NCBI GenBank assembly: GCA_043812875.1
Contig: JBDRLS010000103.1
Location: forward strand, 1 to 32,825
DNA: 32,825 nucleotides
Source: Nanobdellota archaeon
GTDB lineage: Archaea; Nanobdellota; Nanobdellia; Woesearchaeales; JAHIVG01
Direction of reading: 5' to 3'
Shown in pieces: positions 1,922 to 9,629 of this stretch (position 1 is its first letter; every line of letters starts with the position of its first letter). The notes under the pieces are model-generated. The model was not told the DNA's origin. It did not search any database and saw nothing but the letters and a program-made list of their open reading frames with translations. The translations under genes were made by a program, and so were the position numbers.

Positions 1922-3019
1922 ATGCACATTCCGCTGATCAGGACACTTGATAAGACAACGGGAAGTCTTGCAAGCTTAGGGCTCGGCCTATTCCCAAAGC
2001 GAAAACCAAAGAAACCGAAATCCATCCTGGCCATACAACTTTGGGGATTGGGGGAAACTGTCCTAACGCTCCCAGCGCTCAGGGCCTTGCAAGAGCTCTA
2101 CCCGAAAGCCAAGATCGATATTCTCTGCACTGACCGCAACAAGGATGTCTATGTTCAGCAGCCCTATAATGTACACCCTATTACGCTTGAGCCTGCAAAC
2201 ATCCTGTCATTCATCAGAGCGCATTTGCAGCATTATGATCTCGTCGTGGACTTTGAGGAATACCTGCGAAGCGCTGCAGTGATCGCCAGGTTGACGGGCA
2301 AATATGCAATCGGCTTCAGGACAAATGTGAGAGGAGAGGCATTGGACAGGTCCATCGCTTATGTCGATGGACAGCATACGGCTGAATGCTTCCTCGACCT
2401 CATCCGTGCATTGAGTGCAAAGATCCCCCGGATTAAGACGCTTCTTCCAATAAAGGTTTCAAAGGATGATGAAAAAGGGGCGGCAGCATTTCTCAAAAAA
2501 TATAAGGTGAGGAGCTTTATCGGCATCGCGCCCGGAGCTGCGGAGACGAGCAAGCAGCGCATCTGGCCTTTGGAACGGTTTGCACAGATCGCAGATAGCT
2601 GGGCAAAGACGACCCCAGTCATCCTCTTCGGCGGTGAAGGGGATAGAGCGGTCATCGACCGAGTCGTGAAGCTCATGAAGCGGAAAGCAATCGTCGCTTC
2701 CGGAGAATTAAGCTTACGGGAGAGCATCGCCGCACTTTCAAAGGCGAAGCTTGTCCTTGCGAATGACGCTGGATTCATGCATGTGGCCGCTGCGCAAGGA
2801 GTGAAGACCATCGGGCTTTTCGGACCGAATCTGCCGATCAGATGGAAGCCGTTGAATGAGAAGAGCATTGCAGTTTATGAAGGCTATTCCTGCAGCCCTT
2901 GTATCAACTCCCATAAGGGTGAGTTTCCGGCCTGCAAGTTCGGGAAGGACAACCGATGCATGAAGAAGATCTCAGTCGAGGAAGTGTTCAATGTTGGAAA
3001 GAAGATGATGGAGAGATGA
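1922..3019 (+). CDS. Glycosyltransferase family 9 (ADP-heptose heptosyltransferase-like)
   Basis: GLGETVLTLPAL, APGAA..QRIWP, NDAGFMHVAAA, GLFGPN and C-terminal CSPC; TATA 1892-1899. Confidence 0.88.
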   Translation: MHIPLIRTLDKTTGSLASLGLGLFPKRKPKKPKSILAIQLWGLGETVLTLPALRALQELYPKAKIDILCTDRNKDVYVQQPYNVHPITLEPANILSFIRAHLQHYDLVVDFEEYLRSAAVIARLTGKYAIGFRTNVRGEALDRSIAYVDGQHTAECFLDLIRALSAKIPRIKTLLPIKVSKDDEKGAAAFLKKYKVRSFIGIAPGAAETSKQRIWPLERFAQIADSWAKTTPVILFGGEGDRAVIDRVVKLMKRKAIVASGELSLRESIAALSKAKLVLANDAGFMHVAAAQGVKTIGLFGPNLPIRWKPLNEKSIAVYEGYSCSPCINSHKGEFPACKFGKDNRCMKKISVEEVFNVGKKMMER

Positions 3020-3020
3020 G

Positions 3021-3311
3021 ATGGTTGGATGCTGCGAGAATGCGCTGGCGGATTATGTGGCGTGGGACCTTCCCGGTACACCGGTCATCGTCGAGGTAGT
3101 GGTTCTTGGTTTAATGCCTCATGCCTATGTCCGTTCAAAGAGCCATATCAAAAGCGAAGCCAGCCCTGTATATGCAAAAATTCTGTCTTATGAAGGGCCT
3201 ATCGAAGAAGCGGATCCTGCTCTTTTCGGACCCGGGGCTTACAGAGTGGATGATTTCTTGATGTCTCTTGTGGAGCCTAATCAGTCACATGACGATAGTC
3301 GCCCCGGGTAA
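3021..3311 (+). CDS. Hypothetical protein (ORFan)
   Basis: Starts 1 nt after the GT9 stop with GGAGAG upstream and fills an otherwise empty 257-bp gap; no recognisable motif; overlaps the convergent gene by 35 nt. Confidence 0.45.
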   Translation: MVGCCENALADYVAWDLPGTPVIVEVVVLGLMPHAYVRSKSHIKSEASPVYAKILSYEGPIEEADPALFGPGAYRVDDFLMSLVEPNQSHDDSRPG

Positions 3312-4026
3312 AATAGCCGAGGAGCCGGTGGTCTTTTGCCAGGCGAGGGAAGAGGTCCCGTTCTAGGGAAATGACCTTCTTAAGCATGCTGAATACCTCC
3401 GGAGAGAAGATGTAGATGCCGGCGTTCACGACGTGGGAGGATGCGCTTTTTGTCTTTTCAGCGAAAGAGATGATGCGGTTGCCCTCCATGATGGCAGAGC
3501 CGTATTTCGAAGGTTCTTGCCTATCCATCAGACCCATGGTGGCGATGACCTGTTCCCTGAGATGGGATTGGATCATCCGTTTGAGGTCAAAGCTGTTCAG
3601 GATATCACCGGACATGACGACAAACGGACCTTTGAGCTTCGGCTCTGCAATGGCCAAGGCCTCACCATTTCCCCTGACCTCCGCATCCACGACTTCCACG
3701 GCGATAGGGGCGGCAGATGTCTCGACAAGAAGACGGTTCATCAATGCAGAGAATTGGGTGAGAATAAGGACTTTCTTGATCCCATGCGATGAAAACCAGT
3801 CAAGCTGGTGACCGAGGAGTGGCCTGCCGTCTATAGGACGCAGGGAAATGATTTGATGCCTCTTATGAAGAAGCAATACGGCGGTGGTGATCTCTCTCTC
3901 CCGAAGCCCTTTCCCGAGAAAATATTCAATGGCCTGGCTTCTTGACCTGAGCAGGGTGCCCTTCTTGGCACGGTCAAGCTCCTCAAGAAGGTCCTTGTCA
4001 AGGGAGACAGCGATCTTTTTTTTCAT
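3277..4026 (-). CDS. Ribbon-helix-helix (CopG/NikR-like) domain fused to a degenerate sugar-phosphate nucleotidyltransferase domain; putative regulator
   Basis: KIAVSLDKDLLEELD..RSRSQAIEYFL is RHH-like; the NTase fold retains GRPLL, SGDIL, KYG, VNAGIYIF and SLERDLFP but lacks GGxGTR..PK and WxDIG. Confidence 0.85.
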   Translation of the reverse strand: MKKKIAVSLDKDLLEELDRAKKGTLLRSRSQAIEYFLGKGLREREITTAVLLLHKRHQIISLRPIDGRPLLGHQLDWFSSHGIKKVLILTQFSALMNRLLVETSAAPIAVEVVDAEVRGNGEALAIAEPKLKGPFVVMSGDILNSFDLKRMIQSHLREQVIATMGLMDRQEPSKYGSAIMEGNRIISFAEKTKSASSHVVNAGIYIFSPEVFSMLKKVISLERDLFPRLAKDHRLLGYFTRGDYRHVTD

Positions 4027-4031
4027 TGTTG

Positions 4032-4048
4032 GTATTACTAAGTAATAC
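4032..4048. promoter_or_regulatory. Perfect inverted repeat GTATTACT-A-AGTAATAC; candidate operator
   Basis: 8-bp arms with a 1-nt spacer, lying between the minus-strand TATA (4049-4056) and ATG 4026 of the RHH gene. Confidence 0.65.
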
Positions 4049-4084
4049 TATTTAAATGTTTGTTTTCCGTCTATAATGAGAACA

Positions 4085-4137
4085 TTTAAAAATAGAATCC
4101 GCTTCCGTAGTCATACGAAAAACTACTTTGGTGATAC
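4085..4137 (+). promoter_or_regulatory. Promoter and leader of the gmhA operon with Shine-Dalgarno site
   Basis: TTTAAAAA 4085-4092; GTCATAC 4110-4116; SD GGTGAT 4130-4135 before ATG 4140. Confidence 0.6.
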
Positions 4138-4139
4138 CC

Positions 4140-4733
4140 ATGAAAGATGCCATCCGATCAATGCTGAAAGAAAGTGCACAGGTGAAGCTCAAGACTGCGG
4201 AAACGCTCACTTCTGAGATACAGACGGCTGCTGAAAAGATCATCGGCAGCTATAAGCAGGGCGGCAAGCTCATCATATTCGGAAACGGAGGAAGCGCGGC
4301 GGATGCCCAGCACATCACGACGGAGCTCATGCACCAATTTGAGAAGAACCGGAGATGTCTGCTTGCACTCGCGCTCAATACAAATACATCGATGATCACT
4401 GCCATCGGCAATGACTGGGGATTCGAAGACATATTCTCCAGGCAGGTAGAAGGACTCGCGACCCCAAAGGATGTCATCATCGCGATCAGCACCTCTGGCA
4501 ATTCCAAGAATGTCATCAAGGCAGTGAAGCTGGCAAAAGAGAAAGGAACATACACCATCTGCTTCACGAATCAGGAGGGCGGCATCCTGAAAGACATGGT
4601 CGACCTTTGCCTCTGTGTTCCGCATAAGAACACTGCCCGCGTGCAGGAATGTCATATCACCATAGGCCATATCCTCTGCAAGCTCATCGAAGAAAACCTC
4701 TTCCCCGACGCGGGAACGAGGAGGGGACCATGA
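4140..4733 (+). CDS. gmhA: D-sedoheptulose-7-phosphate isomerase
   Basis: GNGGSAADAQH, TAIGNDWG..IFSRQV, ISTSGNSKN and TARVQECHI; ATG 4140 chosen because of the SD. Confidence 0.95.
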   Translation: MKDAIRSMLKESAQVKLKTAETLTSEIQTAAEKIIGSYKQGGKLIIFGNGGSAADAQHITTELMHQFEKNRRCLLALALNTNTSMITAIGNDWGFEDIFSRQVEGLATPKDVIIAISTSGNSKNVIKAVKLAKEKGTYTICFTNQEGGILKDMVDLCLCVPHKNTARVQECHITIGHILCKLIEENLFPDAGTRRGP

Positions 4734-6163
4734 ACGCTTCGCTTGTCGGGCAGTTCCCGAAAAAGAGCATTCTTGCAATAGGCGACCTTGTCCTGGATAG
4801 CTATCTTGAGGGTGATGTCTCCCGTATTTCCCCTGAAGCGCCCGTTCCCGTGCTCCATGTCGAAAAGGAGCGATTTGTCCTCGGCGGAGCTGCGAATACC
4901 ATAGCAAATTGCGCCCATCTTGGCGCGCATGTCGAGGCGGTCGGAATCATCGGAAACGATGCCCCGGGAAAAAAGCTGCGCGCCCTGTTTTCTTCGATCG
5001 GCGTGGGTCATGGCGGGGTGGTTGTTGATGACAAGCGTCCGACGATAAGGAAGACCAGGCTGGTGACACAGCGGCAGCAGCTTGCCCGCATCGATTATGA
5101 GCATACGAGCGACATACCCTTGTCCCTCGAGAAGAAGATGCTTTCCCAGATCAGGAAAAGGATGACAAAGAGCGATGCGGTCATCATCTCAGATTATCAT
5201 AAGGGAACCATCACCGAGACGCTGGCGAAGGAGGTCATCAGTCTCGCAAGAAAGCAGGGCATCCCCCTCATTGTCGATACCAAACCTGACCACATGCTGT
5301 GGTTTGTGGATGCGACATTGATCACACCCAATAGGAAAGAGGCATCAACATTTGTTGGTTATGACCTTGATGATGAAGAGAGCGTGATCCGTGCAGGGAA
5401 GGAACTTGTTGAGAAAACGAAGAGCAATATCCTCATCACCCTCGGTGAACGGGGCATGGTGTTGATGGAAAAGGAAGGGAAGACAACTGCGGTGCCGACA
5501 CAGGCGAAGGAGGTGTTTGATGTCAGCGGCGCTGGCGATACGGTCGTAGCAGTCATGACACTGGGATTGGCTAGCAATGCATCCTTAAGCGAGGCAGCGA
5601 TCCTCGCGAACCATGCCGCAGGCATCGTCGTCGGAAAAGTCGGCACGGTCGCCATCACCAAAGACGAGCTTGCCCAGGTCATTGCAACAGGATCGACAAA
5701 GGTCAAGAGCCTTCCTGAGCTGAAGAAAACAACCGCTTTTCTGAAGAAGCAAGGGAAGCGGATCGTGTGGACAAATGGGTGCTTCGACATCCTGCACGTC
5801 GGGCATACCCGCTACCTGCAGGAGGCGCATAGGCTGGGTGATGTGCTCATCTTAGGATTGAATACTGATGCATCAGTCCATAGGTTTAAGGGGAAAGGAA
5901 GACCGATCCTCCCCGAGCGTGCGCGGGCAGAGGTGTTATCCGCGCTCAGCTCTGTTGATTATATCCTCTTCTTTGATGAAAGCACCCCGATAAGACAGAT
6001 CAAGGAACTCATGCCTGATATCATTGTCAAAGGAGGGGACTACAAAGCAGAAGATGTCGTCGGCTTTGATGTCATGAAAAAACAGGGAGGGAACGTGGTC
6101 ATCATTCCTCTTATCGAGGGATTTTCAACGACGACGCTGATCAACAAGATCCGAGACCAATGA
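4730..6163 (+). CDS. hldE: Bifunctional heptose-7-phosphate kinase / heptose-1-phosphate adenylyltransferase
   Basis: RISPEAPVPV, GGAAN, SDYHKG and DVSGAGDTV (PfkB kinase) followed by NGCFDILHVGH, KGGDY and GFSTT (nucleotidyltransferase); ATGA overlap at 4730. Confidence 0.95.
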   Translation: MNASLVGQFPKKSILAIGDLVLDSYLEGDVSRISPEAPVPVLHVEKERFVLGGAANTIANCAHLGAHVEAVGIIGNDAPGKKLRALFSSIGVGHGGVVVDDKRPTIRKTRLVTQRQQLARIDYEHTSDIPLSLEKKMLSQIRKRMTKSDAVIISDYHKGTITETLAKEVISLARKQGIPLIVDTKPDHMLWFVDATLITPNRKEASTFVGYDLDDEESVIRAGKELVEKTKSNILITLGERGMVLMEKEGKTTAVPTQAKEVFDVSGAGDTVVAVMTLGLASNASLSEAAILANHAAGIVVGKVGTVAITKDELAQVIATGSTKVKSLPELKKTTAFLKKQGKRIVWTNGCFDILHVGHTRYLQEAHRLGDVLILGLNTDASVHRFKGKGRPILPERARAEVLSALSSVDYILFFDESTPIRQIKELMPDIIVKGGDYKAEDVVGFDVMKKQGGNVVIIPLIEGFSTTTLINKIRDQ

Positions 6164-6726
6164 ACCGCGCGGTATTCCTGGACAGGGATGGGACGATCAA
6201 CCGAGATTCGCTCTATGCATATAAGATTGAGGATTTTGTCTTCTTGCCCGGGGTGAAAGAGGGCTTGAAAAAATTGCAGGCACTCTCTTTCAAGCTTATT
6301 GTGATAACCTCCCAATCAGGGATTGCACGAGGATTCTATACTGAAGAAGATCTTGAAAAAGTCCATGCATACATGCGCTCTGCATTAGAAAAAGAGGGGG
6401 TCCACCTTGATGCGGTCTATTATTGCCCCCATCACCCAGAAGCAGGGAATGAGAGATATAGGAAGGTCTGTGATTGCAGGAAGCCGAAGATAGGCTTGTT
6501 CCTCGAAGCAAAGAAGAGATTTGACATCGACCTTAAGAAAAGTTACATGATAGGCGACCGGAGCAAGGACATGGCTGCTGGAAAAACAGCCGGGTGCACG
6601 ACGATTTATCTGGATGTGCCTAAGCCTGATGATCATGAGCTGAAGGCTGCTCCTGATTACTCTGTGAAGAACTTCCCTGAAGCGGTCCAGGTGATCTTGG
6701 AGCGGGAGTCTTCTTCTGCCTTCTGA
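6160..6726 (+). CDS. gmhB: D-glycero-D-manno-heptose-1,7-bisphosphate phosphatase
   Basis: FLDRDGTIN, TSQSGIARG, YCPHHP..CDCRKP and MIGD..KD; ATGA overlap with hldE. Confidence 0.93.
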   Translation: MNRAVFLDRDGTINRDSLYAYKIEDFVFLPGVKEGLKKLQALSFKLIVITSQSGIARGFYTEEDLEKVHAYMRSALEKEGVHLDAVYYCPHHPEAGNERYRKVCDCRKPKIGLFLEAKKRFDIDLKKSYMIGDRSKDMAAGKTAGCTTIYLDVPKPDDHELKAAPDYSVKNFPEAVQVILERESSSAF

Positions 6727-8669: not shown

Positions 8670-9629
8670 ATGAAAACCGCTCTCATCACGGGAATAACAG
8701 GCCAGGACGGCAGCTATCTCGCAGAGTTCCTGCTCAAAAAAGGCTATAAGGTCTTTGGGATGATCCGCAGGGCGTCCACGGAAAAGTTTGACCGCATTGC
8801 GCATATCAAGCATGAGATCGAGTTCGTGCAAGCAGACCTTTTAGATCAGCTCTCACTTATCACGGCATTGAATGAAAGTTCCCCAGATGAAGTGTATAAT
8901 CTTGCAGCCATGAGCTTTGTGCCGACGTCTTGGTCACAGCCCGTGTTGACAGGAGAGTTCACCGCATTAGGCGTCACTCGGATGCTGGAAGCGATCCGGC
9001 TCGTGAATAAAGACATCAAGTTCTATCAGGCGAGCAGCTCAGAGATGTTCGGAAAGGTCAAAACGTCGCCCCAGAATGAGGAAACGCCGTTCCATCCGCG
9101 AAGCCCGTACGGGGTCGCGAAGACGTATGGACATTTCATCACGGTCAATTATCGGGAGAGCTTCGATATCTTCGGTTGTTCTGGAATCCTTTTTAACCAT
9201 GAAAGCCAGCGACGCGGCCTCGAGTTCGTGACCAGGAAGATCAGCAATGGCGCAGCTATGATCAAGCTCGGATTGGACAATGAATTGAAACTGGGCAATC
9301 TTGAAGCCCAGCGGGACTGGGGCTTTGCCGGAGATTATGTCAAGGCCATGTGGGCGATGCTCCAGCAGAAGGAAGCGGAGGATTTTGTCGTCGGCACAGG
9401 GAAGATGCATTCAGTGCAGGACGCTGTTGACATCGCCTTCAAGCATGTTGACCTTGATCCTGCGAAATATGTGAAGGTCGACAAGAAGTTCATGAGGCCT
9501 GCTGAAGTGGATATGCTCTGCGCTGACTCGAGCAAGGCGAAGAAGAAGCTCGGATGGCAGCCAGAGACCTCCTTTGAGAAGCTCATGAAGATGATGGTTG
9601 ACAACGATCTTAAGATGTTGAAACAATGA
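8670..9629 (+). CDS. gmd: GDP-mannose 4,6-dehydratase
   Basis: ALITGITGQDGSYLAE, YQASSSEMFG, PRSPYGVAK, LFNHES, FVTRKI and RDWG; TATA 8640-8647. Confidence 0.96.
   Translation: MKTALITGITGQDGSYLAEFLLKKGYKVFGMIRRASTEKFDRIAHIKHEIEFVQADLLDQLSLITALNESSPDEVYNLAAMSFVPTSWSQPVLTGEFTALGVTRMLEAIRLVNKDIKFYQASSSEMFGKVKTSPQNEETPFHPRSPYGVAKTYGHFITVNYRESFDIFGCSGILFNHESQRRGLEFVTRKISNGAAMIKLGLDNELKLGNLEAQRDWGFAGDYVKAMWAMLQQKEAEDFVVGTGKMHSVQDAVDIAFKHVDLDPAKYVKVDKKFMRPAEVDMLCADSSKAKKKLGWQPETSFEKLMKMMVDNDLKMLKQ

Follow-up and report, generated by a model that had tools for sequence, protein, structure and literature searches.

Does the protein encoded beside the ADP-heptose genes of a Nanobdellota archaeon make a sugar nucleotide, or does it sense one and regulate its neighbours? 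The window, i.e. the whole stretch of 32,825 nucleotides that was analysed (contig JBDRLS010000103.1 of assembly GCA_043812875.1, forward strand), contains a gene at 3277..4026 (minus strand; 249 aa plus stop), delimited by its open reading frame, its domains and its homologues. A first-pass annotation, prepared from the sequence by itself, had described the product as a domain of ribbon-helix-helix (RHH) type fused to a pseudo-nucleotidyltransferase, and had proposed that it represses both itself and the divergent heptose operon. Together, the comparisons presented below suggest that the protein is probably a NikR-like one-component repressor, with a pseudo-enzyme domain that would act as a sugar-nucleotide sensor, feeding back on its own gene and on the heptose operon.

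Domain architecture and predicted fold

The fusion was recovered by Pfam, by a NikR profile match and by an AlphaFold model. The N-terminal RHH domain comprises residues 1-45 (3892..4026, minus strand). Pfam RHH_1 matched residues 7-34 with an E-value of 8.4e-4 (19.7 bits versus a cut-off of 20.5). When a profile of 26 N-termini of the family was compared with the PDB, the best match was E. coli NikR (residues 2-43, E 9.5e-4); this protein and an RHH antitoxin (E 3.5e-3) were the only matches, and the single N-terminal sequence gave a weaker match to NikR (E 0.33) than the 26-sequence profile. The AlphaFold2 model, calculated with 150 sequences (predicted local distance difference test, pLDDT, 95.6; predicted template modelling score, pTM, 0.87), was characterized by an extended N-terminal strand, helices at residues 11-21 and 29-42, and then an alpha/beta domain. 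The RHH motif is thus recognisable by RHH_1, the NikR profile and the model helices, with K4-x-A6-x-S8 as the predicted reading strand. It is the best-conserved portion of the protein in an alignment of 29 family members, with RSRSQA (27-32) unchanged throughout the family.

Residues 46-249 (3280..3891, minus strand) form a sugar-1-phosphate nucleotidyltransferase (NTase)-like domain, probably non-catalytic, which was identified by Pfam (PF00483), Foldseek and profile matches to the PDB. The PF00483 (NTP_transferase) match, with an E-value of 6.2e-20, covered profile positions 29-198 of 245 and, because it began only at position 29, left the G-loop part of the profile unmatched. The top Foldseek match was Arabidopsis VTC1 (7x8k_A, E 7.4e-20, template modelling (TM) score 0.72), with human GMPPB and GMPPA also found at E about 1e-19 and HddC (5xhw) at E 9.6e-15 (TM 0.69/0.76); a family profile run against the PDB retrieved the same entries. 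Both Pfam and Foldseek therefore indicate a Rossmann-like NTase fold. A homodimer prediction (two copies, alignment A3) scored 0.15, the mark being 0.42, and makes no call either way.

An origin from HddC or mannose-1-phosphate guanylyltransferase had been suggested by the first-pass annotation. The second half of this suggestion stood, with the mannose-1-phosphate guanylyltransferase model of NCBIfam (man1P_GTase, NF052502) the closest at 87.3 bits, but HddC (NF049965) reached only 34.2 bits. With cut-offs of 440 and 300 bits, respectively, the protein falls outside both equivalogs.

Loss of the nucleotide-binding loop and retention of sugar contacts

All the NTase motifs that had been quoted were found in the 249-aa protein: the G-loop remnant LLLHKRHQIISL at residues 51-62 (3841..3876, minus strand), SGD at 139-141, VNAGIY at 200-205, SLERDLFP at 220-227, and YRHVTD at 244-249. 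In the alignments, the G-loop was about 9 residues shorter than in canonical NTases and lacked both GGxGTR and PK, so that the intact loop GGxGTR(L)xPLT...PK, which holds nucleoside triphosphate (NTP) and pyrophosphate (PPi), is missing; H57 and Q58 of the remnant are conserved in the clade. The WxD(I)G motif of canonical NTases corresponds to Y-R-H. Of the two acidic metal ligands (in xGD and WxDxG), D141 is kept, and the second is H246, invariant in 29 of 29 aligned members. The sugar and phosphate contacts (YG, EKP, the N of xNAGxY and the E-K of the SLEK loop) are present as Y175-G176, E190-K191, N201, and E222-R223.

The residues named for VTC1 in the available portion of PMC9168903 were placed on the protein by counting along the profile alignment. 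This portion gives G9, T12, R13, and K23 as PPi contacts, and residue 80, G85, N109, D111, Y145, G146, E162, N173, E195-K196, W217, and D219 as GDP-mannose contacts. The four PPi contacts map into the deleted loop and are without counterpart. Among the GDP-mannose contacts, D219, W217, and N109 are changed (to H246, Y244, and S139, respectively), whereas residue 80 (D114; E in the family), G85 (G119), D111 (D141), Y145-G146 (Y175-G176), E162-K163 (E190-K191; K163 was taken from the alignment, the text naming E162 only), N173 (N201), and E195-K196 (E222-R223) are kept. The predicted base, sugar, and alpha-phosphate pocket is therefore retained, and the part predicted to hold NTP and PPi is gone. 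From general knowledge of this enzyme class, catalysis has probably been lost. The confidence of the model (pLDDT 95.6), the matches with GDP-mannose pyrophosphorylases and the absence of the whole PPi/NTP loop are in line with the earlier view that the fold was kept and catalysis probably lost.

Candidate operators in the window

The intergenic region between the regulator gene and gmhA extends from 4027 to 4139, i.e. the 113 bp originally given, and all four GTNATAC sites reported in this shared promoter were found. Four sites in 113 bp were reached in none of 20,000 dinucleotide-preserving shuffles; the whole window has 10 such sites versus 4.56 expected. Since the host is an archaeon, archaeal rather than sigma-70 promoter logic was applied.

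In the sense of the regulator gene, its own promoter reads TTTAAATA-GTATTAC-TTA-GTAATAC-CAACA-ATG. The predicted TATA box, TTTAAATA (4049..4056, minus strand), which agrees with the TATA-heptad-ATG consensus of 36 loci, abuts the first heptad, and the ATG starts 22 nt past the box. Under the TATA-to-start spacing rule of archaeal promoters, this distance suggests a leaderless or near-leaderless regulator mRNA. The candidate operator, GTATTAC-TTA-GTAATAC (4032..4048, without strand), was recognised from the sequence, a genome scan and the heptad arrays of orthologous loci. It had been described as a palindrome between TATA box and ATG; it does lie there, but is better read as two self-complementary heptads (GTA-W-TAC) with a 10-bp period. 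No second match of GTATTACTAAGTAATAC (4032-4048) was found in the window, even with 3 mismatches, and the 1.5-Mb genome contains no second copy of the heptad pair, all its other pairs (ten weaker ones) having at most 12 matches out of 14. The next-best pair in the genome was GTTATACGTATTAATAC, at 578-594 of contig C54 (12/14 matches). The nearest relatives carry TTTAWATA-GTAWTAC-N3-TTCATAC at the own-promoter site.

On the other side, a TATA-like box of the gmhA-hldE-gmhB operon, TTTAAAAATA (4085..4094, plus strand), aligns with TATATAAAT of the related locus L070. The heptad GTCATAC (4110..4116, plus strand) follows after 15 nt, at the predicted gmhA transcription start; the heptad aligned to it in L070 is GTATTAC (reverse complement GTAATAC). 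A weak heptad, AAACTAC (4120..4126, plus strand), lies 10 bp past GTCATAC and resembles the middle TTACTAC of the three-heptad operator described below. The last element (4130..4137, plus strand) consists of a putative Shine-Dalgarno element, GGTGAT (4130-4135), 4 nt before the ATG, which overlaps GTGATAC (4131-4137). AAACTAC and GTGATAC carry on a 10/11-bp period from GTCATAC, and the pattern GTA-N7/8-GTA-N7/8-GTA was reached in 192 of 20,000 shuffles of the region. The two GTNATAC copies at 4110-4116 and 4131-4137 are 21 bp apart, as previously stated, and the caveat then attached to the last one, that it may be the Shine-Dalgarno element, is probably right. Because a similar GGTG/AGTG-type element occurs at that position, outside the operator, in 21 out of 63 intergenic regions (counted by eye, window included; GGTGATCACC in L070), this fourth site is most simply a putative Shine-Dalgarno element, perhaps also contacted by the protein. 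Rfam gave no match at E <= 1 on 3000-4400, so no known riboswitch or small RNA accounts for the leader.

Candidate operators across the family

Related loci were taken from one-per-species genomes (80 loci; some records are titled 'uncultured Methanosarcinales', a label taken as given). They share one intergenic plan. On the gmhA side, the divergent start codon is followed by an often present GGTG-type element, AGTATGAA-N3-TTCATACT and a TATA box in reverse; on the regulator side, the order is TATA, GTAATAC-TTT-TTACTAC-TTA-TTCATAC-C-ATG. The distal consensus was TAGTATGAAnnnTTCATACTTT (70 sites), the proximal consensus TATAaAaA-GTAatAC-TTT-tTACTAC-Ttt-TTCATAC-C-ATG (36 loci), and the family consensus operator TAGTATGAA-N3-TTCATACTTT. 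At both promoters, TATA box and start codon enclose the heptads, which repeat every 10 bp.

These boxes were strongly enriched. In 76 upstream stretches of 150 nt, with expectations taken from the rest of the loci, we counted 148 copies of GTATGAA/TTCATAC versus 1.7 expected (in 58 stretches) and 41 copies of GTAATAC/GTATTAC versus 0.8 expected (in 34 stretches). The spacer of the palindrome is N3, and a version with an N4 spacer was found in none of the 76 stretches. The distal palindrome GTATGAA-N3-TTCATAC, with up to 2 substitutions, was present in 56 of the 75 loci scored, versus 9 out of 2212 control windows. On the proximal side, three TACs at a 10-nt period, at most 60 nt from the ATG, were observed in 25 of the 75 loci and two in a further 21 (1 and 7 out of 2212 control windows, respectively).

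Their placement was equally restricted. With at most 1 substitution, 71 palindromes were found in the 80 loci: 61 within 300 nt upstream of the regulator gene, 6 located 2-32 nt upstream of gmhA where another gene intervenes, 2 upstream of regulators, 1 before a further gene, and 1 as a second site in L055. None of the 71 lay away from the regulator and heptose promoters across about 800 kb of loci. The exact palindrome occurred once each in 13 out of 401 genomes of the phylum, G359 and G244 among them. Eleven exact sites, a set to which those of G359 and G244 do not belong, were fetched; 8 were beside a regulator orthologue (35-51% identity) and 1 was beside heptose genes.

An additional near-palindromic element, TATATACTnTAGAATATA, was observed between the two promoters, 20-40 nt upstream of the regulator TATA box (e.g. 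in L014, L015, L024, L026, and L047). It was present in 18 of 75 loci versus 5 out of 1841 control windows, and is absent from the window. This element may be another factor's site or part of the TATA box and its adjoining transcription factor B recognition element (BRE/TATA).

Conservation of the degenerate state

A word-index search retrieved 302 full-length homologues from DPANN archaea. The 120 of these that were listed had 244-289 aa, 48-64% identity and 98-100% query coverage; the named sources were Woesearchaeota or Nanoarchaeota, and the labels 'nucleotidyltransferase family protein' or 'hypothetical'. An exhaustive search gave 8656 relatives at E <= 1e-3, of which 52 reached E <= 1e-30, and the RHH was included in 129 of the 150 best relatives, for which the alignment begins at query residue 1-4. 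Among the 29 aligned members, 48 columns were invariant and mean column identity was 70%. Invariant positions included R27-S-R-S-Q-A32, G119-N120, S139-G-D141, G176, E190, N201, E222, and Y244-x-H246, and the loop region read AVLLLKGEHQxxAL.

Conserved degeneracy, as opposed to pseudogene-like decay, had been proposed as the pattern to look for, and this is what was observed: the shortened loop and the His at the distal Asp position are common to the homologues. The alignments place the loop deletion in the Woesearchaeota clade. An open frame of about 250 aa was present in all 80 loci, with matches from residues 1-8 through 246-249, and the degenerate state persisted at 35-41% identity, in five distant orthologues that are without G-loop and end in Y/F/R-x-H. 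Among the 150 RHH-fused relatives of alignment A3, 6 retained GxGTR and PK, and many retained just 'GG'. Two family members (G276:C62:41-784 and G013:C9:140130-140876) had one in-frame TGA inside the match, which could mean that the gene is broken, that its stop is recoded or that the sequence contains an error.

An intact paralogue in the same genome

The genome itself (1.5 Mb, 150 contigs, 93% complete) was found by genome search and Pfam to encode a second RHH-NTase, of 278 aa, on contig C113 (locus L092; 6435-7271, minus strand). Its motifs are canonical (GGKGTRLRP...PK, GTAG, NGD, EKP, and WFDTG), the Pfam profile is matched from position 2 to 240 (E 3.8e-48) and its reading strand is R-x-T-x-T. 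The gene precedes a 724-aa phosphoglucomutase-like gene and is divergent from genes for fructose-bisphosphatase (FBPase) and a glyceraldehyde-3-phosphate dehydrogenase (GAPDH)-like protein, with phosphoenolpyruvate carboxykinase (PEPCK) nearby. In the intergenic region upstream of the paralogue (C113, 7272-7371), ATCATAC-TTT-ATCATAC lies between two TATA-like boxes. The same element was matched by pattern in 6 out of 6 loci of intact-loop relatives (own locus included; 30 loci fetched). This paralogue may combine enzyme and regulator functions, with gluconeogenic and sugar-nucleotide genes as its targets. That two paralogous groups each have related boxes beside their own genes gives the strongest indirect indication that the boxes are read by these proteins.

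Gene neighbourhood and phyletic link

The presumed target operon (4140..6726, plus strand) comprises gmhA (4140-4733), hldE (4727-6163), and gmhB (6160-6726), which were identified by NCBIfam with E-values of 1.4e-61, 2.6e-144 (bifunctional HldE), and 3.1e-54, respectively, and belong to the ADP-heptose pathway; the divergent neighbour is thus gmhA, as first annotated. A glycosyltransferase family 9 (GT9) heptosyltransferase (1922..3019, plus strand; Pfam Glyco_transf_9, E 1.4e-34) converges on the 3' end of the regulator gene.

In the 80 loci, the neighbours found by tblastn with the window proteins included a heptose kinase (62), an adenylyltransferase domain or gene (54), gmhB (55), gmhA (33), GT9 (62), GT2 (63), and DUF2304 (48), many of the missing ones being cut off by contig ends. 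Since the cluster has a separate adenylyltransferase, the regulator protein is not needed for ADP-heptose synthesis. A phyletic link was also observed, with strong orthologues defined by E <= 1e-74 and heptose kinase by TIGR02198 at E <= 1e-40. Among 101 sampled genomes of the order, 21 had a strong orthologue and 20 of these also a heptose kinase (15 on the same contig; the genome without it was G276), versus 17 of the other 80 genomes. As the related genomes are kin, the counts given here for loci and genomes overstate independence. Some RHH-NTase match at E <= 1e-35 was found in 62 of the 101.

Several other features of these loci were recorded. Where gmhA is not the first divergent gene, this place is taken by a small cupin (L005, L015, L017, and others; 118-138 aa, Cupin_2, weak matches to D-lyxose or mannose-6-phosphate isomerase), which could provide the pathway with a different sugar-phosphate isomerase. 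In L003 (4402-5304, minus strand) and L017 (4540-5451, minus strand), the heptose kinase is separated from gmhA or cupin by a conserved gene of 300 aa, the only Pfam match of which is sub-threshold and deoxyhypusine-synthase-like; L015 has an NAD-dependent epimerase there, and AglB/STT3 adjoins the cluster in L003. In the window, 172-32227 is a surface-glycan island. Its ADP-heptose pathway is of bacterial type, and the island also has two GT9 heptosyltransferases, epimerases, GT2, GT4, NeuB and a cytidylyltransferase, a flippase-type protein, a homologue of GDP-mannose 4,6-dehydratase together with a reductase-like gene, a DUF6541 membrane protein, a B12-radical-SAM protein, and a subtilase of 1094 aa that carries FG-GAP repeats. 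A 96-aa open reading frame (3021-3311, plus strand) between GT9 and the regulator gene overlaps the last 35 bases of the latter and has no Pfam family; it may be there by chance, because GT9 directly follows the regulator in most related loci.

Proposed mechanism and alternative explanations

Archaeal repressors usually sit between the TATA box and the transcription start, where they exclude TBP/TFB or RNA polymerase. In the mechanism that we propose, the N-terminal RHH would dimerise and read 7-bp boxes of the GTA-N-TAC or GTATGAA type, one heptad per dimer, with two or three dimers spaced by one helical turn along one face of the DNA. The dimers would cover the region from TATA box to transcription start, i.e. 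4032-4048 at the regulator's own promoter and 4110-4126, perhaps to 4137, at the gmhA promoter, and would thereby block recruitment of the basal machinery. With the NTP/PPi-holding loop lost and the pocket kept, the former NTase domain would sense rather than catalyse: binding of one of the pathway's sugar nucleotides or sugar phosphates would change oligomer state or DNA affinity. ADP-heptose synthesis and the level of the regulator would in this way be tuned to the product pool that supplies the surrounding glycosylation island. The acidic D114 (E in the family) at the guanine-reading position of VTC1, together with a homologue of GDP-mannose 4,6-dehydratase (Gmd) at 8670-9629, hints at a GDP-sugar as ligand; ADP-heptose, the product of the pathway, is the obvious alternative. 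Regulation of both the protein's own gene and the heptose operon, as first proposed, gains from the divergent synteny in most of the 80 loci and from the enriched heptads at both promoters; that this regulation is repression is what we infer.

A number of observations weigh against this explanation. The RHH_1 match is below the Pfam cut-off, and only 9 of 29 family members have a match at E <= 0.01. With the patterns used, 16 of the 75 loci had no distal palindrome and no proximal TAC pair, and the proximal pair was missing from 29. By exact-pattern scan, the family palindrome itself is missing from the genome of the window, the lineage of which uses variant boxes; a reversed control pattern was found in 4 of the 401 genomes. 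On the gmhA side of the window, the boxes are degenerate (one good, one weak, one probably a Shine-Dalgarno element). The threshold of E <= 1e-74 was chosen after the score gap was visible. The boxes could also be read by the intact paralogue or another factor, and the whole case is one of sequence and model comparison. Finally, the His-Gln of the loop remnant is conserved and both Glu-Lys pairs and D141 are retained, so non-canonical catalysis is possible.

These last residues bear on the suggestion that the protein is a DNA-binding trigger enzyme, still active as a nucleotidyltransferase (e.g. for a GDP- or other NDP-heptose or mannose). The conserved sugar, base, and phosphate contacts would suit such an enzyme, RHH fusions with canonical motifs do exist (the 6 out of 150 in alignment A3 and the paralogue of the same genome), and the Gmd homologue could consume a GDP-sugar. 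We nevertheless consider it unlikely: the VTC1 residues for PPi/NTP named in the available portion of PMC9168903 (G9, T12, R13, and K23) have no counterpart in the shortened loop, the distal Asp is His in 29 out of 29 members, all NCBIfam enzyme models are far below cut-off (e.g. 87.3 versus 440 bits) and the cluster carries its own adenylyltransferase. Slightly less probable again is a protein that binds the boxes but activates, or that activates and represses according to its ligand. In the clade of the intact paralogue, heptads lie upstream of both TATA boxes, so that different modes may be in use within the family, whereas in the clade of the window, the boxes at both promoters lie between TATA box and start codon, the usual place of an archaeal repressor.

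It is improbable that the heptads serve another factor or form part of the promoter itself, with an RHH that only oligomerises or is a chance resemblance. The weak Pfam match would fit, and box binding by the protein is itself a prediction; however, the boxes are confined to this gene and operon in loci that total about 800 kb, genomes with the exact palindrome have a single copy, the paralogous RHH-NTase group has related boxes of its own, and the RHH, which is conserved more strongly than the rest of the protein, matches NikR, which reads the same hexamers. A decaying nucleotidyltransferase pseudogene, to which the missing catalytic motifs might point, is scarcely credible and was rejected, in view of full-length frames in 80 of 80 loci, a mean column identity of 70% and a degenerate state that is stable down to 35-41% identity. 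A NikR-like repressor with a pseudo-enzyme sensor therefore remains the explanation that we favour.

Databases label the protein 'sugar phosphate nucleotidyltransferase' or 'mannose-1-phosphate guanylyltransferase', and such enzyme labels would mislead metabolic reconstructions. In the literature covered (titles, beginnings of abstracts and term counts, from outside the subscription journals), no paper on an RHH-sugar-nucleotidyltransferase regulator was found. DPANN archaea cannot be grown alone, and to our knowledge the regulation of their genes is almost unknown; here, regulator, operator, and target operon can all be read from the sequence. If the explanation is true, the protein would extend the ligand-sensing domains of transcription factors by the NDP-sugar pyrophosphorylase fold, and would point to feedback on the ADP-heptose supply of an archaeal surface-glycosylation island. 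Both states of the proposed enzyme-to-sensor transition occur within one genome, with the intact member before FBPase/GAPDH and mutase genes and the presumably dead member before the ADP-heptose genes. More broadly, we see an evenly balanced case for a large, undescribed RHH-NTase superfamily in ultra-small archaea, ranging from active DNA-binding enzymes to pure sensors and using GTATGA-type heptads, in which each branch would tune a different sugar-nucleotide pathway. If so, it would be the first class of transcription factors in archaea that responds to sugar nucleotides, and would clearly exemplify the conversion of an enzyme into a ligand sensor.

Comparison with known systems

Among known regulators, NikR (1q5v, 2hzv), the best PDB match of the family's N-terminal profile, has the same layout, with an RHH at the N-terminus and a ligand-binding domain at the C-terminus of a single chain. 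It autoregulates or controls a local operon, as proposed here for the RHH-NTase protein. The reading strand is R-x-T-x-T in NikR and in the intact paralogue, in contrast to K-x-A-x-S here. The C-terminus of NikR is an ACT-like nickel-binding tetramerisation domain, whereas residues 46-249 here have the NTase fold; because of this difference, the regulator is not a NikR. NikR senses a metal, whereas the ligand proposed here is a sugar nucleotide. The available portion of PMC7055735 gives the NikR operator as GTATGA-N16-TCATAC. These hexamers are identical to those within the GTATGAA/TTCATAC boxes of the family, but they are separated by N16 in that operator, whereas in the family they are 5 bp apart, in arrays of two to three with a 10-bp period.

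For the sensor domain, the closest likeness is with GMPPA and KONJAC. GMPPA binds the product GDP-mannose and thereby regulates the pathway. It is termed 'catalytically inactive' in the portion of PMC9168903 available and described as binding GDP-mannose and regulating GMPPB in that of PMC11228364; as far as these texts go, GMPPA and KONJAC are inactive pyrophosphorylase paralogues that have the NTase fold, have lost catalysis and regulate the pathway. GMPPA was also matched by structure (7d72_B, E 8.3e-18 by Foldseek; 7d72_A, E 1.9e-9 by profile), with alignments that cover the N-domain only, so that the protein is not of GMPPA type. GMPPA and KONJAC act allosterically on a catalytic partner subunit rather than on DNA, have no DNA-binding domain and carry a beta-helix domain; the protein described here is without one and ends at residue 249, after the NTase domain. 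Active NTases (GMPP/ManC, VTC1, HddC, RmlA, and the GlmU N-domain) share the fold and most ligand contacts, but here GGxGTR...PK is deleted, the distal Asp is His and an RHH is fused.

In PutA (with an RHH), BirA, and NadR, a DNA-binding domain is combined with an enzyme domain whose ligand state sets repression; we know of no NTase fold among such trigger enzymes. In contrast to these, the enzyme part seems here to be a pure sensor, and the intact C113 paralogue may be of the trigger-enzyme kind. Arc, MetJ, CopG, and omega bind as RHH dimers side by side on short repeats about one helical turn apart, an arrangement similar to that proposed for the heptads; however, these proteins are small or use a small co-repressor (MetJ with S-adenosylmethionine, SAM) and are without an enzyme-derived sensor domain.

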